A DNA stretch of 58,391 bases, taken from positions 71,883 through 130,273 of the forward strand of contig CAZEMQ010000001.1 of NCBI GenBank assembly GCA_964513435.1. The letters are read 5' to 3'. Within the stretch, counting starts at the first letter, position 1. Every line of letters begins with the position of its first letter. The position numbers and the translations under genes were made by a program. The stretch comes from an uncultured Muribaculaceae bacterium. Lineage in GTDB: Bacteria; Bacillota_I; Bacilli_A; RF39; UBA660. The notes beneath the pieces are model-generated. The model worked only from the letters and a program-made list of their open reading frames with translations, was not told the DNA's origin and did no database searches. Positions 2,285 through 57,215 of this stretch are shown one piece after another.

Positions 2285-3770
2285 CAATTTTGTCTCTGAT
2301 ATATCGTTTCCACATATCATCTTTAGATTTCTCTAAAGTTCAGACTATATCATCTATGTAAAATATTTACACGCCTGGCACTTCGATTCTACTTAGAATC
2401 TACTCTACTAAGTTCTATTGTAAATAGCTTTTCGATAGTCGTTACTCTTTCCTCCTAATAGGAGACTTAGATCGGGATTATCCAATCTTTAATCTTATTA
2501 CCATACATGAGTAATTAGTTCATCCATATTTATATTACTATAAATACTTGGTAATTAAAGCTCTAAGGACTTTCCCCGAGTTCACCAGGTTTTATACCGA
2601 CTCTGCTTTTAAATCATTAATAAATTTAAGTTTATAATACATTGACGGGATTATATAAGGAAAAATTAATTTTTCAAAATCAAACCTAGATTTTTCAGAA
2701 ATATATATAACAAAATAATGTTTGTTCTTTTGTTTAGTACAAGATATATTCCATTTATCAAACATCCAATTAACTAAAAGATCTACTTCATTTTCTGTAA
2801 AACCATTAGTTGCTAGTGTACCACAATATGTTCCATCATCCATAAACCAAAACGCTAATGCTATTGGATTATTTATTTTACTTAAGAATTCAGATGTAAT
2901 AGTTTTAATTCCATTTGGATATAATAGATAATAAATATCATTAAATAGTTTATGAGATTTACTACTACCTCTCCATGTTTGATAAATTTTCCCAGTTCTT
3001 TTATCTGGAGATGGTGTATATAATTTATAATTTCCCATAAACTCTCCTAGAATTTTAACTTTTTCCATAAATAATTCTTCCTGTTTAATAGAATGTACAA
3101 TGCGTAAATTAGCATTCTTCATGGATTTAGTAAAATTAATCGAAGAATCTCCTAATAAACTTCCTAATATAAATTGTTCTTGTTCATTAGATAATTGTAT
3201 ATCTTTTTCTGAAAAATAATTATTTCTAGTAAATCGTCCTGCATTTTCTTCACGAGTTCTATAAGATTTTATTGTTGTTTCTTTAACTCCGAAAAAATTA
3301 GCTATCTCTAAATCAGATTTACCTTCATTCCAAAGTCTTTCAAAATCTTCCTGATTTATTTTCTTTTTCAAACGTTTTTCAATACCTAATTTACTAAGAT
3401 GATAACCTACAGTTCTTTCAGAAAGGTTTACTATTTTTCCTATTTCTTTACAAGTTTTTCCTTCTAGATATAAATTTTTTATTTGTTCTTTTTTACCTAA
3501 AAGTTTATCAACTTTTAATTTAGGTTCTTTATGACTTTTTCCTTTTTTTAATCCTAATTTTTGCAAACGTTTTGTAATAGTATTCCTATCACAATTCATT
3601 ATTTCTGCGATTTCTTTTATCTTTTTATTTTCATCAAGGTATAATTTTTTAATTTTGTTTTCATCAAGATTTAATTTACTCATAGCTATTATTTTAATTA
3701 TTATTCAATAATAGCATTTTTCTTAATGCTTTCAAAATAATTTCTCTTAAACTTTCATTTATACACGAAA
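2285..3770 (-). mobile_element. group I intron carrying a LAGLIDADG ORF in the P1 loop
   Basis: Minus-strand core elements: gtgaactcggggaaag (P3/P4-like), ggataatcccgatc, gtaacgactatcg (P7 5' strand), gatatagtctgaac (P7 3' strand, 2338-2351), then a P9 hairpin ctttagagaaatctaaag. P1: exon ACCGAU (3776-3771) pairs with IGS GUCGGU (2601-2596), ending in U.G. Removing the intron joins ..LSALLSLSTD|NAKELQLSKLNA.. in frame. Confidence 0.75.
2592..3683 (-). CDS. LAGLIDADG homing endonuclease with three N-terminal HTH repeats
   Basis: 363-aa intact ORF with no TAG. Two LAGLIDADG-type motifs (FILGSLLGDSSINF and LAFWFMDDGTY). Three repeated HTH modules at the N terminus (..IKEIAEIMNCDRNTITKRLQKLGL.., ..CKEIGKIVNLSERTVGYHLSKLGI.., ..LEIANFFGVKETTIKSY..). 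Lies inside intron 2285..3770. Confidence 0.85.
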   Translation of the reverse strand: MSKLNLDENKIKKLYLDENKKIKEIAEIMNCDRNTITKRLQKLGLKKGKSHKEPKLKVDKLLGKKEQIKNLYLEGKTCKEIGKIVNLSERTVGYHLSKLGIEKRLKKKINQEDFERLWNEGKSDLEIANFFGVKETTIKSYRTREENAGRFTRNNYFSEKDIQLSNEQEQFILGSLLGDSSINFTKSMKNANLRIVHSIKQEELFMEKVKILGEFMGNYKLYTPSPDKRTGKIYQTWRGSSKSHKLFNDIYYLLYPNGIKTITSEFLSKINNPIALAFWFMDDGTYCGTLATNGFTENEVDLLVNWMFDKWNISCTKQKNKHYFVIYISEKSRFDFEKLIFPYIIPSMYYKLKFINDLKAESV

Positions 3771-4748
3771 ATCGGTGCTTAAACTTAATAATGCTGATAG
3801 TATTATAGCAGCATCATAATCATTATCAACTTTTGCAAGAGCTATTAAAACATCATCGTTGATAATACTATTTATATTTTTAGTTCTAACGTTTGCTAAC
3901 AAGTTATACCTCTTACCAGAAATAAGTTTATTAAATAATAATCTTTTCTATTGTTCACGAGTACCATGATTCAGAATATAATTGTAATACTATGTTAGCG
4001 CAAAAAATGTCTTTAATCCAACTGCACATATTCCAATACACTATTTACCAACTTGATTATCATTAATAGATTGATTTTTATTTAAGAAATTACCAGAAGT
4101 TCTAGTCTTAATTTCCTCATTTTCTAAAGAACGATTTCCAACGTCTTTTAATGGTCCAGTTGTACCATCTACAGATGTCTACGCTTGTATTAAATTAACA
4201 GGATCAATTATACTATCGTACATTCCTTCCATAATCTAATTATTAATAATATGATTCAATTTATCTGAACCAACATTATCATAATATGAATTATGCTAAT
4301 TAATAATATCTCCTAACTTTTTAAACATTCTTTGAACTTGTTCTTCTGTTTCTAAATTAAATCCAGATATTCTACTAAATTCAGTTATTCGATTAAATTC
4401 AGAAATAAACTATCTAATAATACTTTGATCAGGAATAATTAAATTCTAGTATTCTTTTAATAACTAACCTAACGATTCTATATCAGATGCTCCATGTAAA
4501 TTTAATTCAACATTTACGTCATCTTCAGATTCGTCAAAATTAAATAAATAACCATATTTATTAAATATATCTAATACATCATTTAAATTATTAGATTCTA
4601 TAAGTTTTACATTCCTTCCAGTAGGAATTGGAAGTGTTTTAGATGCTAGTAATTTATCAACAGATGTTATATCAGCATAAGGAGACCAAAGTTGTAGTAA
4701 ACCATTCTTATCTATACTAAATGTAGCAAAATTTCCTGCGTCTATATC
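3771..4748 (-). CDS. giant RNA-polymerase-like virion protein, exon 2 of 3
   Basis: 978 nt = 326 codons, starting GAT ATA GAC GCA GGA (DIDAGNF..) and ending ..AGC ACC GAT. Open apart from TAG codons. Both ends are defined by P1/IGS pairings of the flanking introns. Confidence 0.75.
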
Positions 4749-40311: not shown

Positions 40312-40839
40312 TTAAATTATTATATTTATATTTTCAGGAAGTGGAGGTAAGTCGACATCTGATTCAGAATCTAATACAGAATTATCTCTTTTAAGTATAA
40401 AAAATTCTATTAAATTTGAATTAGAATCATATACATAACATTCTTCTCTGGCTGTACAATATTTATCAGTTTTATGTTTTCTTAATTCCTTTAATATTTC
40501 TTTTATATTCTTGTTAATATCAACAACTTTGACATCAAAATTTGTACATGGAATGTACCTTATTTTTAAACAATTTGAATCATTATATTTAGGAGAATGT
40601 TTTACAAAATTTGAGTGTTGAAAAAAATTCTCATTATTATAAGTCAAATTTAAATCTTGTTTAAAAGTAAAAAGTTCTATTAAATTAAGATTTTCATCAT
40701 ATATATAACATTTATATGTATCATGGTCACACATGTTAGTTTTATATTTTCTTATTTCTTTTAAGAACGTTTCCTTATTCTCAGAAACGATACTATATGT
40801 ATGATTAGAAAACTTTTCTATTTCTAAATGTTTTATCAT
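40312..40839 (-). CDS. small protein made of two tandem homologous halves (175 aa), TAG-free
   Basis: Intact track ORF. The two halves align: ..KETFLKEIRKYKTNMCDHDTYKCYIYDENLNLIELFTFKQD.. versus ..IKEILKELRKHKTDKYCTAREECYVYDSNSNLIEFFILKRD... ATGA overlap with the upstream gene. Confidence 0.75.
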   Translation of the reverse strand: MIKHLEIEKFSNHTYSIVSENKETFLKEIRKYKTNMCDHDTYKCYIYDENLNLIELFTFKQDLNLTYNNENFFQHSNFVKHSPKYNDSNCLKIRYIPCTNFDVKVVDINKNIKEILKELRKHKTDKYCTAREECYVYDSNSNLIEFFILKRDNSVLDSESDVDLPPLPENINIII

Positions 40840-41906
40840 TGGTCATTTGAAATTAACTAATTTATAAATAAACCCATAGGGATTGTATAATACTATCCAG
40901 TAATAGCTTCCCAAAATCCTTTTCTTGCTTCTGGAGTATCTTTGATAAAATCAACGATACTTTCTTTTTCAATAGCTCTAGGATCATTTTTAATGTTTTT
41001 CATTAACTATTTAACTACATCATCTCCTGGATAGATAGATCCCGGTTCAATGTTCATTCTTTGTCCTAATTCAAATAAATTAGCAGCAGCTTCGTGAGAG
41101 TCTGATACATAATCATATCCTTCTAGTAAATTTTCTGGGATTTCCGATCTAGGTTTAAATATTTTATCAGTTTTATATTGATAGAATTTGGATGTTCCTT
41201 TTACCCTTTTAAGAAAATCTTGATAATTTTCTCCGTCTCTAATTGGTTCAGCTATCCCAAGTCGTCCTCTGTGTATTATTTCATGAAAAGTAGAATTTTC
41301 AATATCTGGACTATATAGATTTATTTCTAAAACATCTTTTGTAGGATCTGAATTTGGACTAATTCTAGCTCTCCATGTTTCTTTAGGTATAACTTCTATT
41401 TTTGGATGTATTTGTGTATTTACACGCTAACTACTAGTAACGTTAGGTGAGAAATCTGTAAATCCTAATCTTTTTGCTTCTTCTAAGTTAGACTAATCTA
41501 CACGCTATCTTAAATTTGATGAAAAGTAATCTTGTGCTTTTTTAATCCCATCTTTTACTTCCTATGCTATTACAGACATATCCCAATTTTTGTTTTTTAT
41601 GTATTTTTTAGATACTATTTCTCCTATTGGTAACGATTGTAATGTTTCTCTAAATCCTTTAATATAAGTAATTGGATGTCTAAGAAACTTATAAACACTT
41701 GTAATATCAGCACCTAATGTCGGAGCGGTTAATCCAGCATCTGCTAAAATTTCTAAATTTTCAGCTAACTATTGTGACGCTTTGCTTGGTTCTTGAATCC
41801 AATTTTTATTATCGTCTTGTTTCCATCCACTTGCTGTCATAACTGAGGGACTTTCAGCAACAGCTCCTCCAATTATAGCATTTTTAATTTGTTCTAACCA
41901 ATCCAT
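40836..41906 (-). CDS. HExxH-motif protein (356 aa), possible zinc metallopeptidase
   Basis: ATG 41906 to TGA 40838-40836 = 1071 nt. Seven in-frame TAG. Contains ..NSTFHEIIHRGRLG.. (about 41290-41265). It is the first gene after the strong terminator at 41913-41951. Confidence 0.65.
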
Positions 41907-41963: not shown

Positions 41964-43112
41964 TTATTCAGTAACTTTTAAACCATCCGAAGATACAGTC
42001 AATGATGTTCCATCAAGTTTAACAGATACTTCATTATCTGTAATATTGATACCATCACCAGCAGTTAGATTATCTTGTTTTTCAGTTTGTAATTGCTCAA
42101 CAGTTGTACTCAAAGTATTAACCGTGCTATTCAAATTATTAACTGCATTGGTCAAAGATTCAATATCATGTGCAACAGAATCAAGACCTGGACTTCCATA
42201 ACCATCTACTGTATTAATAGTACCTATAGTAGCTAATGCAGCTTCAAACTCATCAGAAACAGTCTGGTTAACATAGAATACATGAGTAGTTCTAGATTTT
42301 ACTAAATCGCCTACAGCATTGTCTCCAAGAATACCTCTATTAACACAATAATGAATAGTATATTGATTATACTTAGCACCTATAATCGGAGCTTCATCTT
42401 GGTTAAGAGCAAGCCAACGAGTACGTTCGTAGGTAGGCAAACGTAAATTATGCAACAAGAACGGATAAGTACCAAAGCCTTCTTTTCCTACAAAATATGC
42501 TTCCGAGGTAGCAGTTACAGCATCATTAGAATCAACTTCTGTGATATCTTCTAACGATCTAACTACGTTATATTCACCCATACCATAATAAGCATCTCTA
42601 TCAAGTTTTTCAATATTTAAAATTTTAAACCTTTGATACTCATCGGTAGCTTCTATCGTGATATAAGTACCACTATTAGAAACATTCAACAATTTCCTAT
42701 TATAGACCATAATTTCGTACTTATTGATGGTCTTAATTAATTTTTCAGCAGTTGTAGCTGCATCTGTATCCCAAATAAAATCAACTGATAAAGGTTTACC
42801 TTTCCATTGAAGATCATTAGCATACAAAGAGCTTTGAGATGCTTGAGAGATACCAAGATAAATGTGTAATCTAAATATATCTCCGTCTGTTCCGCTCAAC
42901 TGTGACAAATCAATAGTCACTTTAGCAAATTCAGCATCATGTGCTTCTGCTTTATAAATAACATGAACGTTATTGGCAAGGAACTTGTTTACTCTTTTAA
43001 CATAAAAACTAGCAGGGTTAGTTCCATCTGCTGCCTGTGCTGACCACAACGGTTTACCTGTTGTGAAATCTCTGTTTGAATTAATTACGGTTGTTGTTGT
43101 AAATTGAAACAT
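41964..43112 (-). CDS. abundant-type virion structural protein (382 aa), auxiliary-capsid or head-fibre-like, TAG-free
   Basis: Intact track ORF with ATG and TAA. C-terminal coiled coil (..LTNAVNNLNSTVNTLSTTVEQLQTEKQ..) followed by short fibre-like repeats (GDGINITDNEVSVKLDGTSLTVSSDGLKV). Followed by a strong terminator. The role is inferred. Confidence 0.8.
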   Translation of the reverse strand: MFQFTTTTVINSNRDFTTGKPLWSAQAADGTNPASFYVKRVNKFLANNVHVIYKAEAHDAEFAKVTIDLSQLSGTDGDIFRLHIYLGISQASQSSLYANDLQWKGKPLSVDFIWDTDAATTAEKLIKTINKYEIMVYNRKLLNVSNSGTYITIEATDEYQRFKILNIEKLDRDAYYGMGEYNVVRSLEDITEVDSNDAVTATSEAYFVGKEGFGTYPFLLHNLRLPTYERTRWLALNQDEAPIIGAKYNQYTIHYCVNRGILGDNAVGDLVKSRTTHVFYVNQTVSDEFEAALATIGTINTVDGYGSPGLDSVAHDIESLTNAVNNLNSTVNTLSTTVEQLQTEKQDNLTAGDGINITDNEVSVKLDGTSLTVSSDGLKVTE

Positions 43113-43127
43113 AATTTAAAAAGTTAT

Positions 43128-45141: not shown

Positions 45142-45267
45142 TCACGCTTCGCGTAAAATTACGCTACGATGTGGTGTAAAGCAAGCTATACCACAATATG
45201 ACATCATTACTAATCTGGAACCTGCTACATTGCTAGCTACTTCTCCTGAAGTCTTGCCATCGTATCC
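45142..45267 (-). CDS. putative major capsid protein, exon 12 (last)
   Basis: Follows the intron 3' end ..gataacacattG|GGATACGAT. 126 nt encoding GYDGKTSGEVASNVAGSRLVMMSYCGIACFTPHRSVILREA, then TGA and a terminator. More GC-rich than the flanks. The other two frames either read through the terminator hairpin or stop early. Confidence 0.65.
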   Translation of the reverse strand, partial: GYDGKTSGEVASNVAGSRLVMMSYCGIACFTPHRSVILREA

Positions 45268-45351
45268 CAATGTGTTATCGTGTAGCTTTTTATCTACACT
45301 TCTATAACTTACTTATTCGTTATAGTTCAGCATATATTTTTATCCTATATA

Positions 45352-46056
45352 TTATATTGTATAGTTAATTTTTTGATTTTGTTTAAGCTGTTCTATTTCT
45401 TTTTGCATTATTTTTATCAACTTATCTTTTTCTTCGTCCCTACGTTTTAATTCTTCAATATCTTCACTGTTTTGTTCAATTAACCATAATGCAGCTTGTC
45501 CACATTTTTGTAAATTAAATAACTTTAATTCTTCTGGACATCCTGTTTCTAAATTGCGTTTAGATTCTTTAAAGATTTGAAGAATTTCTTTCTTAGTTAA
45601 ATTTTTATTCAATCTATAAATAGTATCTTCAGAAATGTTTAACTTATCAGCAAGTTCTTTGTTACTTAATGATAATTTTCCGTAAGGTTGTATATCTTTA
45701 AACATATATTGATAACTTGCAGCTATATATGCTTTTTCAGAAAAAGATAAATTTGGATTATCAATGAATTCTAAATAAAATTTATCAAATTTAATTACCT
45801 TTTTAAAGAAATAGTAATTAGATCTACCTTTCTTTTTTACCGTAATGTACTCACATCTTATTAAATTATCTATTGCTTTTCTAATTGTATTGATGGCAGC
45901 ACCACTACGTTTTGATAATGTAGCTAATGATGGATAACATTCATGTTGCTCATTATCATAGCATTTTAAATATAAATATACAAGTACATCTGCCGGTTTT
46001 AATTGCGCTTCTTCTGTCATTTTTGATGGTAAAATAAAAAATTGTTCCTCTTTCAT
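45352..46056 (-). CDS. winged-helix/HTH DNA-binding protein (replication-initiator or regulator-like), 234 aa, intron-encoded, TAG-free
   Basis: ATG 46056 (the track ORF starts 12 nt upstream at a TTG). The N terminus matches the usual HTH_36-type pattern (FFILPSKM..LKPADVLVYLYLKCYDNEQHECYPSLATLSKRSGAAINTIRKAIDNLIRCEYITV). A second HTH (LSNKELADKLNISEDTIYRLNKNL) and a C-terminal coiled coil follow. I see no nuclease motif. Confidence 0.8.
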   Translation of the reverse strand: MKEEQFFILPSKMTEEAQLKPADVLVYLYLKCYDNEQHECYPSLATLSKRSGAAINTIRKAIDNLIRCEYITVKKKGRSNYYFFKKVIKFDKFYLEFIDNPNLSFSEKAYIAASYQYMFKDIQPYGKLSLSNKELADKLNISEDTIYRLNKNLTKKEILQIFKESKRNLETGCPEELKLFNLQKCGQAALWLIEQNSEDIEELKRRDEEKDKLIKIMQKEIEQLKQNQKINYTI

Positions 46057-46132
46057 AAATCGTATCAATTAATATATTATGCACAAATATATCAATCATA
46101 ATTCAATTTTTGAAATTAAAAAAATGTTAAAA

Positions 46133-46215
46133 CGCAAATTTGATATGATTCAAGGGCAAATTTAATACGACCAACCGCAAATTTAATATGGTTCGACCGC
46201 AAATTTAATATATAT
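46133..46215 (-). repeat. four iteron-like direct repeats (period 21-22 bp) upstream of the HTH gene
   Basis: Minus strand: TATTAAATTTGCGGtcgaacca / TATTAAATTTGCGGttggtcg / TATTAAATTTGCCCttgaatca / TATCAAATTTGCGTtttaaca. The GCAAATTT cores start on the plus strand at 46134, 46156, 46177 and 46199. An almost pure A/T tract with TAAGTATAG repeats lies immediately next to them (46205-46250). Confidence 0.7.
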
Positions 46216-46433
46216 ATCTATATTTAAACTATACTTAATATCTATACTTAAACGCTTCGCGAATCAAAAAATTTTAAATAAGGATATTGGACACTCGTGG
46301 AGATATTATATTTATTCAATCTCTATGCGTTACACTACTTAAATACCTTTCGCAATTATTTAAGTTAGCACGGTATTTTCATTTCAGAATCCACCGTTTT
46401 TTGCCCAATTCATTAATAACATTACTGTTATTA

Positions 46434-46786
46434 AGGGCAGAATGTTCTACCTACGCCTGAAAGTTTATTAGTAGTAAAGTCTTGACCCATAAGGGCAACT
46501 TTAGCGATAGCTGGAGTTCCAGATGTTTTATCAGCGGTAAGGTCGATACATACACCATAACCTTTATCAGGATATTCACGAGTCAATGCTCGATCAACTA
46601 CGAATGAAACCTGATTTCCGGCATAAACATACGAATCAAAGGTATTTCCTACCTTAATATAACCACCTTCACCACGATTAGCAGATTTTGAGTACATGTA
46701 AGTACCATCTGTTCTATAATTAGCAAGATATTCACCAAGAACTGTATTTATATCTTGCCATAATTTGCGGTTGACTACAAAAATCC
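46434..46786 (-). CDS. putative major capsid protein, exon 11
   Basis: Follows ..agaataacataattG|GG ATT TTT GTA. 353 nt (2 nt + 117 codons) ending TGC CCT| at 46434. The 12 N-terminal residues and the stop codon of track ORF 46431..46820 are intron sequence. Confidence 0.65.
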
Positions 46787-47946
46787 CAATTATGTTATTC
46801 TGAAACTTTAATAGTTTCAATTCTTATACTTTCGTATAAGTTCAGACTATATCATTATCTTATAATGGTTTAATGTTAGAAGTGTTACCATAAAAATATC
46901 TCCATCTATATCCTCCACATCTTTTTTGTGTTCCTTTAATTGCAGCTATGATATTTGCACTAGATTTAATTCCATTTGCATCAGCTGCTTCTTTAATTGA
47001 AGAATAAGATTCTAAAAAGATTCCTTTGTCATTATATTTAGCAACAGGAGATAAATGATTATTGTTTTTAGGAACAAATTTATTTTTATATGACCAAAAA
47101 TAACCGTATGCTTGATTAGATTTATTATTACATACATTCCAAATAGATGTTTTTGCTGAAATGCTATTTTCAAATTGTTTAGATGCTTCTACTATTGATT
47201 TCCAACATTTGATTAAATTACCTTGTAAATCGAACTAATACACCGATTTCTCTTTTTTCTCAACTGGAGATATATCACTCATATCGTCATTAAAATACTT
47301 CCATTGATAATTTCCGCAGTATTTAGAATTTCCAGATAAGTTTTGTTTTATTGAATTTAAATTTAATGCCTATGATGCTTCTTTAATTGAATCCCACACT
47401 CTTATAAACTTACCTTCTAAAGTGTACTGCGCTATTTTTCTAGAATGCTCATATTGAGATATAATTCCTCCAACTGAAAGATTATAAGTATCTGTTCTTT
47501 TAACAAAATCAATATTTACTATTTCAGCTTCTTTCGCATAAGCTAATTTTTTTCCTTCTTCTGTATCTGGAAATATATATAAAGTTTCTCTTTTAAAATT
47601 TTCATAACCATATTTCTATACAGCTTTCGGAAATCCTTTTATTTTCTTTTTTCTATCTTTTTTTGTAACACCACATCCAATATATCCATCAAATATATCT
47701 GGGTTAGTCCTATGCACCCCTACATAGATTTTACCATTAATTAAATTAGTAGTTTTATAAACTATATATTTCATAAGATATTAAACGTTTAGTCGTTGAA
47801 CATTCTTCCCTTTCGGAAGCCTTTGCTGCTGATTGTCTAATTCTCTAATTTTTAAACATTTATGTTTAGAATTACTTCTTACATTGTAGTTTAGAGACTC
47901 TAAAGATTTCCCAGCAATTTGAATAATTTATTTTTACAGCTTTTTC
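46787..47946 (-). mobile_element. group I intron I carrying a GIY-YIG ORF
   Basis: Core: aaattgctgggaaatc, agacaatcagcagc, gttcaacgactaa. The ORF follows, then gatatagtctgaac (46845-46857), P9 hairpins and ataacataattG. The 5' splice site is placed by codon phase at GCAGCTT| (47947); ATAGCTT| (47956) is also possible. The P1 candidate AAGCUGU gives U-A rather than U.G. Confidence 0.6.
46860..47774 (-). CDS. GIY-YIG homing endonuclease (304 aa) with three in-frame TAG
   Basis: ATG 47774 to TAA 46862-46860 = 915 nt. MKYIVYKTTNLINGKIYVGVH..FDGYIGCG..YNLSVGG, then repeated C-terminal W.S..EA....GY.W-type DNA-binding modules. The track misses it because of the TAG codons. Confidence 0.75.
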
Positions 47947-48112: not shown

Positions 48113-49462
48113 CAATATTTCTCTATGTTACCATAGAAGCTTAGACTATATCTTTAACTTATATATTCAAATATAAAACCTTTTGAAGATTTTCTTTCTT
48201 TTCTACAAACTTTTTGACAACTGGGAAATACTTTTTTGCATTCAGTTACACTATCCCAAATTTTTATCAAATTACGATTTAAATCATATTGAGCCACTTT
48301 TATAGCTTTTAAATTTTGTTTATTATAAGGTTCAATAGACTTAGATTTTATATAACTCCATCTATATCCTCCACAAGTTCTGTTATTTTTTATAGCTCTA
48401 ATAATATTACCATGACTTGTTTTAGGAGTATTGTTTATGGCATCTTTTATAGATTTATATTCTTTATCAAAAGTTCCATTTAACAAATATCTATAAACAG
48501 GAGTAATATTAGTTAATAATTTACCAGATTTTTCTTCAAGTAATTTGGTAATATCTTCATCTGCTCTGAGAAAATAATAACCACAACATGTAGTTCTATT
48601 AAATACAGAATTTGATATAGAATCTCTAGGTATATCTAATTTCAAAGCAGCTTCAGAAGCATTTTCAAAAGTATTTAATAACATTCCATCTTTATTATAT
48701 TGAAATACATATCCCCTAGAACTTAATTTGTATTCTGAAATATTAATTTTACTAATATCTGACCAAAACGAATTATTAAAACTTCTTTTATCTTTAATGC
48801 ACATTGCAATTCTATCTTTATTTATATTGTATGTAGTAGTAATATCTTTAATAGAATTCCATGTTTTTATCAGATTTCCGTTTAGATCAAATTCGTAAAT
48901 TGTTTTTGACATTATTGGAGGAATTTGTCCACCTGCTATCATATTGTAAGTATCAGTTCGTTTTACAAATTCTTCTGTTACTAACCACGCTTCTAAATCT
49001 AAAGCATCTTCAAGATTATCGAATACTTTTAAAGTATATCTATAAAAAGCAGACGTTCCGTACTTTAAAATAGCTTTATGTAAATGTGTTTTTCCTTTAT
49101 TATATGAACTAGGTTTATTAATATAAGCCCCACATCCAATATATCCATCAAATACTTCAGGGTTCTCTGTTTCGTGTACTCCAATATAAATTTTATTGTT
49201 TATTTTGTTTGTAGTTAAATATACTATGTATTTCATAAGTTTTATACTTTACTTTAAGTTATTTCCCATTTCCATCTTATAGATGTACGATTAAAAATCT
49301 AGTCGTTGAACTTTCTCTACAACTACATTATTAATGCTTGTTTTACGTAGAGTTTAGCTGCTGATTGTCCATAAATAGGAGTTCCCAGCAATTAAAGAAA
49401 TTAATTATTAATAGGTTTTCACCTATCTGACCCATTTATTAAACGGCGATTCTTAATTCCCC
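48113..49462 (-). mobile_element. group I intron H carrying a GIY-YIG ORF
   Basis: P1: exon GACCU (49467-49463) pairs with GGGUC. GNRA hairpin ATAGGTgaaaACCTAT. Core: taattgctgggaactcc, ggacaatcagcagc, gttcaacgactag. The ORF follows, then gatatagtctaag (48141-48152). Confidence 0.65.
48154..49236 (-). CDS. GIY-YIG homing endonuclease (360 aa), TAG-free
   Basis: Intact track ORF: MKYIVYLTTNKINNKIYIGVHETENPEVFDGYIGCG...YNMIAGG, plus three C-terminal repeat modules. Occupies the P8 loop of intron H. Confidence 0.9.
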   Translation of the reverse strand: MKYIVYLTTNKINNKIYIGVHETENPEVFDGYIGCGAYINKPSSYNKGKTHLHKAILKYGTSAFYRYTLKVFDNLEDALDLEAWLVTEEFVKRTDTYNMIAGGQIPPIMSKTIYEFDLNGNLIKTWNSIKDITTTYNINKDRIAMCIKDKRSFNNSFWSDISKINISEYKLSSRGYVFQYNKDGMLLNTFENASEAALKLDIPRDSISNSVFNRTTCCGYYFLRADEDITKLLEEKSGKLLTNITPVYRYLLNGTFDKEYKSIKDAINNTPKTSHGNIIRAIKNNRTCGGYRWSYIKSKSIEPYNKQNLKAIKVAQYDLNRNLIKIWDSVTECKKVFPSCQKVCRKERKSSKGFIFEYIS

Positions 49463-49533: not shown

Positions 49534-49787
49534 CAATATATTAATCTTATGTTACCATAAAATTCAGACTATATCTTCATTTTATATCCTATTACCGTTT
49601 ATAAAATGCCTCCCTTTTCCACTTACCTGTGTACTCTACTTGTTTATTCACTAATATGTTTCTTATTAGTTATACTTTCGATAGTCGTTGAACTTTACAT
49701 GAAAATTTTCATGTATTAGCTGCTGATTGTCCACCTCTGGAGTTTCCAGCAATTAAAGAGGTTTATACAGAGCTACTGTTACTCAGA
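49534..49787 (-). mobile_element. group I intron G, ORF-less (254 nt)
   Basis: P1: exon ACAGGGU pairs with IGS GCUCUGU (7 bp, ending in U.G). Core: ttaattgctggaaactcc, ggacaatcagcagc, gttcaacgactatcg, gatatagtctgaa (49563-49575). Confidence 0.7.
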
Positions 49788-49968
49788 ACCCTGTGTTCAT
49801 AGCGTACATAAACGTATCAAGAAGTTCTTTCTCTTTCTTCAACATTTTATATACACCTTCATGTTTTGTATGATCTTTATCATCAGATATACTCATGAAT
49901 ACATTCTCTTGAATAGCAAACAAGCTAGACCAGCTAGCATCAGCACGGAATGTAGTCATGTAATTACG
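49788..49968 (-). CDS. putative major capsid protein, exon 8
   Basis: Follows the P9 hairpin cttatatgaaaatataag and ..tattttttG|CGT AAT TAC. 181 nt encoding RNYMTTFRADASWSSLFAIQENVFMSISDDKDHTKHEGVYKMLKKEKELLDTFMYAMNTG plus 1 nt. Corresponds to track ORF 49783..49971 without its TTG start and its TGA. Confidence 0.65.
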
Positions 49969-51404: not shown

Positions 51405-52734
51405 GTTTACTCTAATATTTCTATCAGGACTGACTATATCATTAACTTTTTAACTTAAATACTTATATGAATAACCTTTTTGTGTTTTATTTGTACCATT
51501 AAGTACTTTCCATACAGAAGTACCGTTCTCTTTTTCTGCTGCTGTCGCAGATTCGTATATTTTTATTAAATTTCCTTGTAAATCATACTTTCCAACGCTT
51601 CTCTTTTCATTTTTCTTTTTACAAGCGTATTTCGGCAATTCTTCTAAACTCCATAAAAATCCGCCTTTACATGTAGACTTTTGTTTTAAAGATTTAGATA
51701 TATTTGAAGTTGGATTATCACGTTCAGCTTCTATTTGAGAATTATATTTTTGAATAAATTTTCCTGTTTCACCATTATATTTACAAATAGATCTTCCTTC
51801 AACATATCTTAGTCTAGCTTTAGAATAATTGTCGTCTTTTACTTCACAAAAATAATATTTGTCTTTATAAAGTATTCCAAATATTCTACAGTTTTTAATA
51901 GTAATTATATTAATTTTTAAAGTTTTACTAGCTTGTGTTTGATTATCAAATTCATACAACAAAGTACCCTCTTTGGAATATACGTATATGGGAATCTGAT
52001 GATTCAAACCTAAATTATAAGTACTAATGTCTAATTTATCAAATTTAAAATTAGTCCATAAATAATTTTTTCCTTTAGTCTTTAAAGCGATAGCATGATT
52101 TATTAATGAATGATGACAATTCATTTCTACAGATGCTTCTTTTATACTACTATATTCTTTAATGAAATTTCCTTCTAAATCATATTGATAACAAGGAACT
52201 ACAATATAAAAATTATCATCAATTCCTCCTAAAATCATGTTATATACATCATCTCTTGCAAGAAATTCTTCATTTACAAGTTCTCTTTCTAAGTTAGATG
52301 CTTCTTCTAAACTATTAAAAACCGCTAATGTTTTTCTTCTGAAGTTTTTAGGTCCATATTTCTTTACAGCAAACTGAAAATGAGTTTTAGGATAGTTGTA
52401 GGTATTCGGTTGAGTAACTAAAACTCCACATCCAATATACCCATCGAATACTTCAGGATTTATAGTTTTATGTACTCCAATGTATATTTTTCCATTAATT
52501 AAATTTGTTGTTTCATAAACTATATACTTCATATTTATTTAAATTTTAAAGTTATTTACCATTTCCATTATAAAATAATGTACGCCTTGCGGCTAGTCGA
52601 TGAACTCCTATAAAGTACTGTCTCATATCAAACTAGTTACTAAATAAAAGCTGCTGATTACCATATATTTCTACTTAGGCTTCCAGCAATTAAGTAAATT
52701 TGCTAAGCAACTCACGCTGCTAAGATCCGAATTG
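51405..52734 (-). mobile_element. group I intron E carrying a GIY-YIG ORF
   Basis: P1: exon CUGAGU (52740-52735) pairs with IGS GCUUAG (one internal G.U, ending in U.G). Core: ttaattgctggaagcc, ggtaatcagcagc, gttcatcgactagcc. The ORF follows, then gatatagtcag (51430-51441). Confidence 0.6.
51450..52532 (-). CDS. GIY-YIG homing endonuclease (360 aa), TAG-free
   Basis: Intact track ORF: MKYIVYETTNLINGKIYIGVHKTINPEVFDGYIGCG...YNMILGG, plus C-terminal repeat modules. Confidence 0.9.
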   Translation of the reverse strand: MKYIVYETTNLINGKIYIGVHKTINPEVFDGYIGCGVLVTQPNTYNYPKTHFQFAVKKYGPKNFRRKTLAVFNSLEEASNLERELVNEEFLARDDVYNMILGGIDDNFYIVVPCYQYDLEGNFIKEYSSIKEASVEMNCHHSLINHAIALKTKGKNYLWTNFKFDKLDISTYNLGLNHQIPIYVYSKEGTLLYEFDNQTQASKTLKINIITIKNCRIFGILYKDKYYFCEVKDDNYSKARLRYVEGRSICKYNGETGKFIQKYNSQIEAERDNPTSNISKSLKQKSTCKGGFLWSLEELPKYACKKKNEKRSVGKYDLQGNLIKIYESATAAEKENGTSVWKVLNGTNKTQKGYSYKYLS

Positions 52735-52782: not shown

Positions 52783-54118
52783 CTGGCTACTTAAATAATA
52801 TTTATTTAAAGACTATATCATTAACCTATGTTTTAGGTCAATACTCGCTTCAATCTATTATTTTAAATACATATCCTTTATGTGTTTTATACTTTTCTTG
52901 AATACAATGTGCAACACCTCTTCCCCATACTTTAGAACAAGCATTTAATGATGGGTAAGTATCAAGTAAATTCCCATCTAAATCGTATCTCCCAATTTTT
53001 TTTCGTTTGTTTTTAGGAGGTGCATTATATATTTCTAATTTATCTAAACTCCACATAAAACCATTATCATCAACTTTTTTATTTTTAATAAACTTAGTTA
53101 TATTACTATAAGGATTTGCTTTTTCTGCTTCTAACTGTGTATTATATCCTTCTATAAAATTACCATTATAATCATATTTATAAACAGGTCTGTTTTTAAT
53201 ATAGATAGAATTTGCAATATCATAAGAATCAGCTTCAACAAATGAACATATGTACATATCTTTTATTATATGTCCAAATCTAGCAGATGTTCCAACATCT
53301 AGACTTACATTTAATCCCATAAATTGAGCAGCTTTTGTTAAACTGTCACAAGTCTTTATAAACTTTTTAGTATGGGAATCATAAATAGAAACTTGTATTG
53401 GTTTATTTCTTTCTGTATTACTATAACCTTCTAATTGAAGTTTATTTACTTTAAAATTTGTCCAATAACAGTTTTTAATTTTTATATTATATATTATAGC
53501 TTCTCTAATCGAATTAGGATTACAATGTACAGATTTGGCAGCTTCTTTAATACTCTCATATTCTGTAATAAAATTTCCTTCTAAATCATATTGATATGTA
53601 ATGATACTTCTATACTCCTGAAGCTCTCCGCCTATAACCATATTATATACATCATATCTACTTAAAAATTCCTCATTAACTAAATGTTCTTCTTCTTTAT
53701 AAGCGGCTTCTGCTGTATTAAAAACGGCAAGAGTTTCTCTTTTAAAATTTTTAATTCCAAATTCTCTTACTGCCTGTTGCATTTTGGTTTTACCTTTTTG
53801 ATAAGTGTATGGTTTATAAATCCATATCCCATTACCTAAATAACCATCAAATTCATAAGGTTTATCTGTTTTATGTACTCCTATGTAAATATAACCGTTT
53901 ATTAAATTAGTAGTTTTATAAATTATGTATTTACTCATAATAAATTTACTCCTTTCGGATAGTCGTTGAACGTTATTTTAAATTTAATTTAAAAGAATTG
54001 CTTCCGTGTTAAAATTTTAGTTTAAAATCTTCGCTGCTGATTACCTTTAGGGCTTCCCAGCAATTCAAGTATTTGTTTGTATAGTTATTACTAACTATAG
54101 GATGCTAGTTTTTGGTTA
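52783..54118 (-). mobile_element. group I intron D carrying a GIY-YIG ORF
   Basis: P1: exon GGAUGU (54124-54119) pairs with IGS GCAUCC (ending in U.G). GNRA hairpin ATAGTTAgtaaTAACTAT. Core: gaattgctgggaagccc, ggtaatcagcagc, gttcaacgactatcc. The ORF follows, then gatatagtcttt (52810-52821). Confidence 0.6.
52850..53938 (-). CDS. GIY-YIG homing endonuclease (362 aa), TAG-free
   Basis: Intact track ORF: MSKYIIYKTTNLINGYIYIGVHKTDKPYEFDGYLGNG...YNMVIGG, plus C-terminal repeat modules. Confidence 0.9.
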   Translation of the reverse strand: MSKYIIYKTTNLINGYIYIGVHKTDKPYEFDGYLGNGIWIYKPYTYQKGKTKMQQAVREFGIKNFKRETLAVFNTAEAAYKEEEHLVNEEFLSRYDVYNMVIGGELQEYRSIITYQYDLEGNFITEYESIKEAAKSVHCNPNSIREAIIYNIKIKNCYWTNFKVNKLQLEGYSNTERNKPIQVSIYDSHTKKFIKTCDSLTKAAQFMGLNVSLDVGTSARFGHIIKDMYICSFVEADSYDIANSIYIKNRPVYKYDYNGNFIEGYNTQLEAEKANPYSNITKFIKNKKVDDNGFMWSLDKLEIYNAPPKNKRKKIGRYDLDGNLLDTYPSLNACSKVWGRGVAHCIQEKYKTHKGYVFKIID

Positions 54119-55443: not shown

Positions 55444-55566
55444 ATCTCGTTTCCGAATTGGTCTTGACACACATTGACATTGTTGTTTGGTTTTATCAAT
55501 TCTAAAGATGTCATACTTCTGGAAGTAGTTCTCTTTAAACGCCATTGTTATTTCTGATCCGTTTTC
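55444..55566 (-). CDS. putative major capsid protein, exon 4
   Basis: Follows ..aagataacataattG|GAA AAC GGA. 123 nt = 41 codons encoding ENGSEITMAFKENYFQKYDIFRIDKTKQQCQCVSRPIRKRD. The 3' end is set by the 9-bp P1 of intron C. A splice site 6 nt downstream (..GAAAAU|) is a weaker in-frame alternative. Confidence 0.55.
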
Positions 55567-56490
55567 CAATTATGTTATCTTACGGGCTTTTTATCCCATA
55601 ATTCTTATACTTTACCATTGTATAAGTTCAGCATATATTTTCATCCTTTAAAGGATGTTGAGTACTCGTGGAAATATTATTTCAATTTCTATGCGTTACA
55701 ATAAATAATATTTTGGAAATTTATAATTCATTGATGGAATTAAATTATAATATTTGTCTAAGAATTCCATTATTTTTAAAGTACCTTTTGTTGAAATATA
55801 AGGTCTATAACCATAATTAGGTCTATCTTCATACTTATAATGCTTATACATACGAAATTCTACTTCGAAGATTTGATTAAATTTATTAGTAATTTTTATT
55901 AATTCTTCTAAAGAAAAACTTTCTAAACATAGAGTAATTCTAAATTGAGTTGGAATTCCTTGTTTATTATATTTAATTCTTAAACATCCATCATCTAAAT
56001 ACATTAATAAAAAAGTAAATTCTGTGAATTTATTAATATATTCGTCAGGAACTATTTTTATACGTTTATTATTTTTAGTAATATAAAGATCTTCTCTTAA
56101 TTGAGTTATCCAGTCTGTTCTATTTGTACTTAATCTATATAATAAATACGTTTTATCTTTTGTAGTTTTATTATGTGGTTTAATTGTACATTTACAGTCT
56201 GGCAGCAATTCAAAAAGTTCTTTTTTGAATTGTAGATAATCTAAATTCTTACTAGTATGAGTAATTTCACAGGAAGAACGACCTTTTGGAGTTCTCTGTT
56301 TGTTAATAGATCCGTCTGCTAATATTGTTCCTAATAATGCAGATTTTATTTCAAATTCGTTATTAAATAATTCTTTTAAGTTCATAGACTTTCTATTTTA
56401 TATCAAAAATATTATTTATCTCGGTATTATCCTTTAAATTTTTGGAGGACTTCACCGATTTTACTCAATTCAATACGTTATTACTAACGT
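55567..56490 (-). mobile_element. group I intron B2 (variant P7 subclass) carrying a LAGLIDADG ORF
   Basis: Starts with a GUAA-capped hairpin ACGTTAgtaaTAACGT, then ttgaattgag and TCGGT..ACCGA. The ORF follows; its TAA lies inside the P7 5' strand (ttgTAAcgcatag). Then P8 catcctttaaaggatg, P7 3' strand atatatgctgaac (55626-55638), P9 hairpins and ataacataattG. Confidence 0.6.
55696..56385 (-). CDS. LAGLIDADG homing endonuclease (229 aa), TAG-free
   Basis: Intact track ORF with two LAGLIDADG-type motifs (SALLGTILADGSI and FLLMYLDDGCL). Confidence 0.85.
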   Translation of the reverse strand: MNLKELFNNEFEIKSALLGTILADGSINKQRTPKGRSSCEITHTSKNLDYLQFKKELFELLPDCKCTIKPHNKTTKDKTYLLYRLSTNRTDWITQLREDLYITKNNKRIKIVPDEYINKFTEFTFLLMYLDDGCLRIKYNKQGIPTQFRITLCLESFSLEELIKITNKFNQIFEVEFRMYKHYKYEDRPNYGYRPYISTKGTLKIMEFLDKYYNLIPSMNYKFPKYYLL

Positions 56491-56559
56491 AAGGGGCGAA
56501 TTTTCACCCGTTTCAGCAGGAACTTCTGCGAATTCTACGTGTTTGATGTTATTTGTCTC
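56491..56559 (-). CDS. putative major capsid protein, exon 3 (69-nt micro-exon between two introns)
   Basis: Lies between a complete standard intron core (B1) and a complete variant core (B2). Reads ETNNIKHVEFAEVPAETGENSPL in phase 0 and is more GC-rich than the flanks. The start could instead be 56556. Skipping this exon would also keep the frame, so it needs RNA evidence. Confidence 0.5.
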
Positions 56560-56769
56560 CGAATTTAGACTATATCATTTACTATGATTTAATATTTGTA
56601 ATTAAATATACAATATATTTCATAATAATTCAGTTTTTCAATTATTAAAAAAATAATTTACAGATTTCTCCTAGTCGTTGAACGCTGTTGTCATCACAAC
56701 CACGCTGCTGATTATTTTATAAACTCCCAGCAATTTAAAGAATTTAACGAGATCAAGACATAATTATTC
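56560..56769 (-). mobile_element. group I intron B1, ORF-less derivative with a GIY-YIG remnant (210 nt)
   Basis: P1: exon GAGGUU (56775-56770) pairs with IGS GAUCUC (one internal G.U, ending in U.G). The core from the P3 strand through the hairpin gttgtgatgacaac and gttcaacgacta closely resembles that of intron C. It keeps only ATGAAATATATTGTATATTTAATTACAAAT.. (MKYIVYLITN..) of the endonuclease gene before gatatagtctaa (56566-56577). Confidence 0.6.
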
Positions 56770-56961
56770 AACCTCCCATTCAAACACCATTGAACTACTC
56801 GAAATATCAAATTTACTAGGTGTTTCTCCTTTGTAAAAGACATTTCTCAAACCATCTGTGATGAAATTTAAAGTGTTATCAGTGTACATTCTGGCTACAA
56901 CACCAAAGCGATACGGTTTAACGCCAATATACTTACTCCAATCTTCAACTGTTTTTGTGTC
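56770..56961 (-). CDS. putative major capsid protein, exon 2
   Basis: Follows ..aagataacattttG|GAC ACA AAA. 192 nt = 64 codons encoding DTKTVEDWSKYIGVKPYRFGVVARMYTDNTLNFITDGLRNVFYKGETPSKFDISSSSMVFEWEV. Corresponds to track ORF 56764..56964 without its TTG start and its last 2 codons. Confidence 0.65.
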
Positions 56962-57215
56962 CAAAATGTTATCTTATAGGCTTTTTATCCTATAAATCAT
57001 ACAATTTATCATTTTGTATGGTCAGACTATATTTTACTTATAATAGTTCCTGTTTTCGTGTTAATATTATTGGTAGACTCCTCAATTATTAGTCGTTGAA
57101 CCTTTCTTCTTACCTTTATGTCATTCAGAAGATTTGGCTGCTGATTATCCCATAGTTAGTTGCCATAATGATGGACTTCCAGCAATTTACAGGATTTTAT
57201 ATGGGCAACACGTTC
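56962..57215 (-). mobile_element. group I intron A, ORF-less (254 nt)
   Basis: P1: AUGGGU (57221-57216) pairs with IGS GCCCAU (57206-57201), 6 bp ending in U.G. Core: aaattgcttggaagtcc, gggataatcagcagcc, gttcaacgactaa (57103-57092), atatagtctgacc (57033-57021). Two P9 hairpins (atacaa..ttgtat and atagg..cctat). Confidence 0.75.

Follow-up and report, generated by a model that had tools for sequence, protein, structure and literature searches.

The window analysed here is a stretch of 58,391 nucleotides (nt) from contig CAZEMQ010000001.1, which has a G+C content of 28.7% and carries nearly all of its genes on the minus strand. Its major capsid protein gene spans 45–58 kb and is interrupted by many introns. 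One of these, a group I-type intron of 1181 nt at 45268–46448 (hereafter intron J), holds in the peripheral loop L8 a gene for a 234-amino-acid (aa) winged-helix protein, together with four direct repeats and an AT-rich tract. Because reading TAG as a sense codon more than doubles the open reading frame (ORF) coverage in the window, from ~26 kb to 62 kb, the phage is TAG-recoded, and TAG makes up ~2.2% of the codons in its long genes and neighbouring late genes. A neighbouring gene in a related contig matches the Pfam family CrAss_Ring_1, indicating a crAss-like phage, and the Delta and Zeta groups of crAss-like phages are recoded, intron-dense and rich in mobile elements (PMC7886860). This match and this description of intron-dense recoded groups point to a crAss-like affiliation. 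The exons, introns and cassette elements described below all lie on the minus strand.

Intron J in the major capsid protein gene

Intron J was delineated by the exon join, by covariation and by nhmmer. Its 5′ splice site follows the GGU at 46451–46449 (46449|46448) and its 3′ end reads ...CACAUUG, the terminal G at 45268 being the omega-G. The upstream exon (46449–46820) ends in ...NKLSGVG, and the last exon of the gene (45142–45267) encodes GYDGKTSGEV...ILREA followed by the stop codon. When the exons are joined at these boundaries the product reads ...SGVG|GYDGKTSG..., which is gapless against GVGGLDG of the intron-less capsid homologue MT835470 (...PGVGGLDGLSSG...). The earlier note on this DNA had set the 5′ boundary at 46433, which is off by 15 nt, as a junction at that position leaves a 5-aa insertion, RTFCP, relative to the intron-less homologue. 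In a related locus, L004, the stretch equivalent to this insertion includes a TAA.

The helix P1 (46436–46451) consists of exon GGU and intron AGA paired with UCU-G-CC, closed by an ACAU loop, with a U.G wobble marking the 5′ splice site. P1 is built alike in five of the five related introns with a definable boundary; locus L001, which has no convincing P1 or 5′ splice site, stands outside this count. The 5′ core (46281–46448) comprises P1, P2, the P3 5′ strand, P4–P6, the P7 5′ strand, P7.1 and the P3 3′ strand, and it closes with the P8 5′ strand (46287–46281), while the P7.1 loop of J is "empty", at 14 nt. The 3′ core (45268–45346) contains the P8 3′ strand, J8/7, the P7 3′ strand, P9, P9.1 and the omega-G. 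The secondary structure was built from J, a second intron of the window (B2, below) and six related introns of other contigs. In the alignment of the eight 3′ halves, 98.8% of the cells in P7, P7.1, P8, P9 and P9.1 are paired and 18 of the 31 pairs of P7–P9.1 show compensatory changes, a number matched by none of 500 shuffles, and in controls with slid partners the pairing amounted to only 25–51%. A hand-made alignment of 5–6 introns shows complete pairing, in several sequence variants each, for P2, the long-range P3, P4 and P6. In helix order and in its P3/P7 pseudoknot the structure conforms to the group I type with a P7.1 extension, and both halves of a J-type intron profile are matched in nhmmer searches. 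The Rfam model RF00028 gave no match at J or B2 (E up to 10), nor at loci L008, L010 and L050 (E up to 1). Judged by covariation and the exon join, intron J is a genuine group I-type intron and is predicted to splice.

Intron B2 (55567–56505), a J-type intron at another site of the capsid gene (ETG|ENG), provides a cassette-free comparison. Its ORF (55696–56397) lies in the P6 region and belongs to LAGLIDADG_2 (E = 2.7e-23), and its loops L7.1 and L8 are small. The ends of J are 73–76% identical to B2 (55560–55721), in agreement with the homology at both ends to a LAGLIDADG-bearing intron that the earlier note had proposed. The same note had contrasted a 6-nt P8 loop in B2 with ~936 nt in J; the 6 nt stand, and the insert in J measures 934 nt (46280–45347). 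The B2 hairpin catcc-tttaaa-ggatg stands exactly at the position of this insert. Other introns of the capsid gene are of the classical kind: Rfam detects classical group I introns at 49545–49817 (80.7 bits) and weaker ones nearby. Weak nhmmer matches to the halves of the J-type profile were also found at 56961–57036 (E = 3e-4) and 56406–56471 (E = 1e-4), both on the minus strand and adjoining a classical group I core element, GUUCAACGACUA, near 56680. At these positions the capsid gene may harbour additional introns of the J family, or degenerate ones.

The J-type introns share two further features. First, GGU ends five of the six definable junctions (the J site in the window and in L004, B2, L008 and a tRNA gene in L050), with GCU in L010, and this GGU pairs with the G-CC guide; its recurrence hints at site choice through P1 pairing (reverse splicing). 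Second, an ORF-less J-type intron in L050 (4322–4569; IMGVR_UViG_3300013947_000023, region 4291–4640) interrupts a tRNA gene immediately 5′ of the anticodon loop, and the same tRNA-splitting intron is present in L120, L251, L259 and L260. Removal of the L050 intron by the boundary rules of J yields a 74-nt tRNA cloverleaf with the anticodon CUA, which is an independent check of these rules. Group I splicing thus seems to be required for the amber-suppressor tRNA of a crAss-like phage.

The cassette in loop L8

The insert in L8 (45347–46280) is defined by the 6 nt that B2 has at this place and by homologous cassettes elsewhere. At its left border is a GC mini-hairpin, CGC-GAA-GCG (46253–46261), and equivalent hairpins (gcgaagcg, cgcguaagcg, gccgaaggc) stand ahead of the boxes in L006, L008, L001, L024, L025 and L214. 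It is followed by three tandem TAAGTATAG-type boxes, 13 and 11 nt apart (46218–46252), which constitute a candidate DNA-unwinding element (DUE). The exact TAAGTATAG copies at 46250–46242 and 46237–46229 are the sole two in the 58 kb, and the third box, TAAATATAG at 46226–46218, has one mismatch. This box tract is 88% A+T, compared to 71% for the window, and abuts the first of four direct repeats of TATTAAATTTGCGG (46132–46210), which are candidate iterons. The repeats occupy 46210–46197, 46188–46175, 46167–46154 and 46145–46132 with 0, 0, 2 and 2 mismatches, respectively, are spaced by 22, 21 and 22 nt and lie 76–154 nt upstream of the ATG. Both the A/T tract with its own repeats and the four direct repeats, put at 21–22 bp apart upstream of the ATG, had been recognised in the earlier note. 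A promoter-like site, TTCAAA-17 nt-TATATT (46084–46114), overlaps TATATTTG (46091–46084), which fits TAnnTTTG and stands 27 nt before the ATG. We take TAnnTTTG to be the Bacteroidota -7 promoter motif, so that TATATTTG would presumably be a host-type promoter box.

Two other interpretations of the repeats were considered and rejected. The window repeat contains TAAATTTG, which itself fits TAnnTTTG, and the repeats could thus be tandem Bacteroides promoters; this was dismissed because the repeats of other lineages (AATCTGAGAGAA, CCTGCGCAC, TAGCCACAG and others) lack the motif and keep the number and phasing. An RNA structure of the intron was rejected as well, since the repeats are direct and are present also in free-standing copies outside introns.

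The gene of the cassette (45352–46056) encodes the 234-aa protein, which consists of tandem winged helices and a long C-terminal helix. There is no TAG among its 234 codons, which, given the ~2.2% TAG of the neighbouring late genes, has a probability of ~0.006. Among Pfam families, HTH_36 matches aa 18–71 (E = 1.4e-18) and a second winged helix is found at aa 130–165 (HTH_24, DnaD_N); the other matches are to generic helix-turn-helix families and to RP-C at E = 0.019. In PHROGs, the highest-ranking families without exception comprise replication initiators, DnaD-like loaders or O-like proteins (E = 5e-14 to 5e-11), and it is the N-terminal domain that they match. An AlphaFold model, computed from a 28-sequence alignment with a predicted local distance difference test score (pLDDT) of 84.7, contains a first winged helix at ~aa 13–94, a second at ~aa 105–181 and a C-terminal helix of 43 residues. 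In a Foldseek search of the PDB with this model, F-plasmid RepE54 or Rep-iteron-DUE complexes take all of the first 32 places (E ~1e-5), with 210–223 aligned columns and template modelling (TM) scores of 0.44–0.51, and generic tandem-winged-helix structures rank after these complexes at E = 5e-4 or worse. The closest solved proteins by sequence are MarR/GntR-type repressors, which are weak matches (E = 6e-4 to 3e-3; NCBIfam gives a similar result), while RepA_N-type chains appear in the profile search against PDB sequences only at E ~2. Viral structure databases label members of the family merely "helix-turn-helix domain protein".

No nuclease family was found in Pfam, NCBIfam or PHROGs, apart from a weak match to the C-terminal, non-catalytic part of an HNH PHROG, and no conserved acidic/His motif of catalytic type is present across 28 homologues. 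Thus, Pfam and AlphaFold bear out the TAG-free protein with two winged-helix modules, a coiled coil (modelled as the long helix) and no visible nuclease motif that the earlier note had described, and the profile matches, to HTH_36 and to the PHROGs replication initiators, do not mark it as a degenerate remnant of a homing endonuclease.

The absence of TAG is shared by all intron-encoded ORFs of the window, that is, the cassette gene, the ORFs 48154–49236, 51450–52532 and 52850–53938 and the LAGLIDADG gene 55696–56397. Among the three ORFs between 48154 and 53938, only 48154–49236 was read as GIY-YIG, from its N-terminal motif. Further TAG-free ORFs of the window are 2592–3704, 40312–40842 and 41964–43115.

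The cassette in related phages

A large protein database yielded 41 homologues of the protein, 28–78% identical and encoded on contigs of up to 183 kb, and, with a profile as guide, IMG/VR gave 80 loci and metagenomes 55. GenBank phages gave no DNA or protein match to the cassette. A single-sequence scan of IMG/VR likewise found nothing, whereas the profile scan did find loci. We compared the upstream regions of 104 distinct family loci with 190 control windows. At least two AAGTATAG-type boxes are present in 84 of the 104 family loci and in 5 of the 190 controls; at least three repeats phased at 19–24 nt (mode 21) in 85/104 and 25/190; and at least four phased repeats in 52/104 and 7/190. Boxes and repeats occur together in 73 of the 104 loci, and a TAnnTTTG lies at most 70 nt from the ATG in 58. 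By these counts the box-repeat-gene layout recurs beyond chance in ~70–80% of the 104 loci, in crAss-like phages of 100–200 kb.

The two kinds of element differ in how they are conserved. The boxes are invariant across lineages and stand in a fixed register, TAAGTATAGTTAG and then the first repeat. The repeats are lineage-specific (TATCAATTTTGC, AATCTGAGAGAA, CCTGCGCAC, CTCTCGGTCA, TAGCCACAG, GGTTTAAAAATAC and others, with 71 different seeds), homogeneous within one array and arranged in arrays of 3–5, some of which (L015, L025, L041) are closed by an inverted half-repeat as in Rep operators. Such variable repeats beside invariant boxes are as expected of sites that co-evolve with the protein next to an element that would be read by something conserved. 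Repeats lacking in related introns would have spoken against the cassette; instead, they were never separated from the gene and accompany it between two intron loops, at several insertion sites and at free-standing positions, with number and phasing kept. In the free-standing copies, long non-coding stretches next to the box tract on its upstream side, ~250–420 nt before the ATG (e.g., L014, L024, L025, L030, L041, L056, L063 and L075), contain runs of G or C (gggggggg) and A/T-rich repeats of the "aaaaattttt" type.

Most copies of the cassette are free-standing, close relatives included. The copies encoding P0011 (70% identity) and P0025 (44%) follow a divergent or non-coding region and head a block of small genes; those encoding P0014 (60%) and P0018 (50%) are likewise outside introns, and the free-standing loci include L006 and L212–L215. 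Downstream of the free-standing copies, 47 of 75 loci are sense-like, and a test for strand switches by flank skew classified 23 as divergent, 19 as co-directional and 33 as ambiguous. The location in a J-type intron is limited to a clade at least 71% identical to the window protein. In six of these relatives (L001, L004, L008, L010, L271 and L272) the cassette occupies L7.1, as opposed to L8 in the window. The host of the intron is a ferritin-like gene in L001, an N-terminal site of the capsid gene in L008 and another gene in L010, and in L004, L271 and L272 the cassette is at the very same capsid site as J. Since L7.1 is empty in the window, where the cassette sits in L8, the cassette has changed its place within the intron, and the intron together with its cargo has spread to different sites. 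In all its intron-borne occurrences the unit begins at the GC hairpin and ends with the stop codon, the genes that follow it in free-standing loci being absent.

Locus L004 (3270–5092 of ENA ERZ27260025 k141_4473), at the capsid site of J, has a different content behind the same TAAGTATAG boxes in L7.1. After the boxes come other repeats (TTGTACACA twice, at 21 nt, and TAGTACTCTAAAATTTT twice) and then a gene for a 148-aa replication protein of the RepL family (30.5 bits, cutoff 20.3). The next gene encodes P0019, a 363-aa GIY-YIG::Rep fusion with a TAG codon, in which the GIY-YIG domain is N-terminal (26.8 bits). P0019 is 54% identical to the window protein overall and much more so in the C-terminal two thirds.

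A second cassette with a different repeat specificity is present in some genomes, at times arranged in tandem with the first. Such double cassettes were seen in L024 (~3700–3900), L050 (~3700–3800), L068 (~3850–3900), L213 (601–1296 and 3001–3702) and IMGVR_UViG_3300013383_000001 (L021 and L046). This would agree with one phage having two initiator/origin systems that differ in specificity.

A candidate origin module as intron cargo

From its sequence and modelled fold, we read the cassette as a self-contained, iteron-type module of initiator and origin that is carried as cargo in a peripheral intron loop, and we assign this reading a probability of about 0.6. By the layout and distribution seen among its relatives, the unit is a standard feature of large crAss-like phages and is usually free-standing. 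In F ori2/repE and pPS10 oriV/repA, the order of elements is AT-rich tract, iterons, promoter and gene. An origin accounts best for the cassette because of this element order, the RepE-like fold, the self-sufficiency of the unit when transplanted and the RepL-family protein behind the same boxes in L004. The Rep/iteron-like interpretation of the earlier note thus gains support from the PHROGs initiators, the RepE-like model, the conserved repeats and the RepL-family protein.

In the proposed mechanism, the protein, perhaps dimerised via the C-terminal helix, would occupy the four repeats along a single face of the DNA. The adjoining AT-rich box tract would then melt and the replication machinery of the phage would be loaded there, while binding beside the gene's own promoter may also set the level of the protein. 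With its own promoter for host RNA polymerase and no TAG, the protein could be made before the phage turns TAG to sense, and early expression of the Rep-like gene would thus be possible despite its position inside a late gene. Splicing, with P8 closing across the 934 nt, would take the module out of the capsid mRNA, and the capsid protein would therefore be unaffected.

Several observations weigh against an origin. By sequence the protein is only a generic winged-helix protein; it does not belong to Pfam Rep_3, and profile searches against PDB sequences found no RepE, pi or RepA chain. The TM score of ~0.5 to RepE is a moderate match, and RepE has no counterpart of the long C-terminal helix, a feature seen more often in dimeric regulators. 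An activator or repressor would also suit direct repeats that immediately precede a promoter, and instead of being an unwinding element, the invariant boxes could serve a conserved phage polymerase as promoter. The genes downstream of the free-standing copies are small, early-like and not replication-like, as judged by eye from translations and not by profile search. The cassette contains no perfect DnaA box (TTATCCACA), and the GC skew shows no switch at 46 kb, which is uninformative because the skew here follows transcription. Finally, the single copy of the cassette was counted within the 58-kb window, a count that covers the window and not the remaining ~72 kb of the genome. As for DnaA, one 8-of-9 match lies at 46085–46077 (TGTGCATAA, reverse complement TTATGCACA), right after TATATTTG, and is probably due to chance in AT-rich sequence.

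The rival that survives best, which we nevertheless consider unlikely, is an autoregulated transcription factor with an operator array, in which the protein binds the repeats only to control transcription. The free-standing copies would then control themselves and a downstream early or middle operon, the intron copy would control only itself or act as a roadblock that times capsid expression, and a conserved polymerase or factor would use the TAAGTATAG boxes as promoter elements. The repeats are indeed directly upstream of the promoter-like TAnnTTTG box, the free-standing copies head co-directional blocks of small genes (the 47 sense-like loci above), MarR/GntR-type repressors are the closest solved proteins by sequence, the coiled-coil-like C-terminal helix suits a dimer and the inverted half-repeats of some arrays are classic operators. 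However, the intron unit is without any downstream target and still has its boxes, repeats and gene intact in seven independent contexts; as the intron-borne unit has lost all downstream target genes, a regulator of itself alone has no evident reason to persist. Moreover, the full-length structural matches are replication initiators and not repressors, with PHROGs pointing the same way, a RepL-family replication protein substitutes behind the same boxes, and three tandem boxes 11–16 nt apart would be an odd promoter design. Literature searches for the box motif or for a known crAss promoter returned nothing relevant, and the early promoters of phi14:2 have no known motif.

We regard as improbable a homing or targeting factor, that is, the DNA-binding half of a homing system whose nuclease was lost or is supplied in trans by the nearby GIY-YIG, LAGLIDADG or HNH genes, with the repeats as recognition sites or, as for I-TevI, self-repression sites. 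The cassette does occupy the usual place of endonuclease genes, the natural fusion P0019 joins GIY-YIG to this protein in an intron at the same capsid site, there is a weak NUMOD1 match (E = 0.067), the C-terminal part of the HNH-endonuclease PHROG is matched at E = 1.3e-3, and ICP1 Odn is a precedent for a chimera of Rep domain and nuclease (PMC8263062). On the other side, ~100 homologues have no nuclease and, accompanied by the same repeats, mostly stand free of introns, the alignment contains no conserved acidic/His catalytic motif, and the fusion is a single derived case with a TAG codon, unlike the stand-alone gene. Repeats beside the gene itself, in addition, are no homing target in an intron-less allele. 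That the cassette is a decaying or neutral insert, a fragment captured from the early region of another phage and without present function here, is very improbable: intron loops tolerate neutral insertions and these phage groups are heavily infested with mobile DNA (PMC7886860), but the ORF is intact, 67–78% identical to its relatives with every conserved position kept, the four repeats, three boxes and promoter box are all retained, and the same intact unit recurs in six other intron contexts. A small terminase with a pac site, as another pairing of a helix-turn-helix protein with repeats, was rejected because the gene is TAG-free, heads early-type blocks, is not beside TerL and encodes a Rep-like fold.

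Within the origin reading, a bolder and quite doubtful proposal is that the clade's only initiator/origin module resides in a self-splicing intron that is itself mobile, with the module hopping between L7.1 and L8 and the loaded intron moving between genes (capsid, ferritin-like and others) at GGU-type sites. In the 151-kb genome with L001, L012 and L216, two collection scans turned up no family member other than the intron-borne copy, an observation that also counts for the origin reading itself. If the proposal is true, a replication origin would be transferable intron cargo, and initiation at the intron might drive an endonuclease-free spread into co-infecting genomes by fork-induced or break-induced recombination.

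The cassette shares features with several known systems. As in F ori2/RepE, pPS10 oriV/RepA, R6K/pi and RK2/TrfA, there is a tandem winged-helix protein of ~230–250 aa, in the cassette a putative initiator, four direct repeats phased at ~22 bp with an adjoining AT-rich tract of short tandem repeats, and a gene directly downstream with its promoter beside the repeats; inverted half-repeats are found in relatives of the window. Unlike in these iteron plasmids, the window protein has no Rep_3 membership by sequence and an extra 43-residue C-terminal helix, and the candidate origin lacks DnaA boxes and lies in the genome of a lytic phage, inside an intron loop. Lambda O and ori-lambda likewise combine a phage winged-helix initiator with four iterons beside an AT-rich region, binding to the repeats being a prediction in the cassette, and the N-terminal domain is matched by the PHROGs "replication initiation O-like" and "DnaD-like helicase loader". 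Lambda differs in that the O gene itself contains the iterons and that its product binds P through a C-terminal domain; in the cassette the repeats precede the gene, whose shorter product has a second winged helix and a helical tail.

As in the introns of T4 td (I-TevI), nrdB and nrdD and those of SPO1 and Twort, a predicted self-splicing intron interrupts an essential phage gene, and one of its peripheral loops accommodates a gene that has a promoter of its own. I-TevI represses its own promoter by binding to an operator there. In contrast to these introns, the cargo of J is an initiator-like DNA-binding protein with candidate sites and an AT-rich tract, not a nuclease or maturase, and the intron type is not recognised by Rfam RF00028. 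Group I introns of the fungal mitochondrial rnl gene carry rps3, a cargo that is not an endonuclease. They show that genes useful to the host, and not only homing endonucleases, can reside in intron loops; the cargo there is a single gene, whereas in J the protein gene travels with cis-acting DNA sites as one module. Odn of ICP1 and P0019 of L004 both join an initiator DNA-binding domain to a nuclease of the GIY-YIG superfamily (PMC8263062 for Odn), with the order of domains reversed in P0019 (nuclease N-terminal); the window protein has no nuclease domain.

The components are of known kinds, and their combination, an initiator-like protein with iterons and an AT-rich tract in the loop of a group I intron in a capsid gene, is new in the searched literature. 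Searches for group I introns with iterons or origins and for crAss phages with iterons or origins found nothing relevant, and neither a genomics paper (PMC7886860) nor a 2023 review (PMC10136315), nor a broader full-text search, mentioned a replication origin or initiator of Crassvirales. The module, present in ~100 distinct loci, is a concrete and testable candidate origin for Crassvirales, the dominant phages of the human gut. As intron cargo it would add to the known repertoire of group I introns, which comprises nucleases and maturases, a protein accompanied by the cis-acting DNA sites that belong to it, and it shows a standard-code gene with its own host-type promoter nested in a recoded late gene. 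The GIY-YIG::Rep fusion, which resembles the anti-satellite nuclease Odn, further indicates traffic between replication modules and homing endonucleases.

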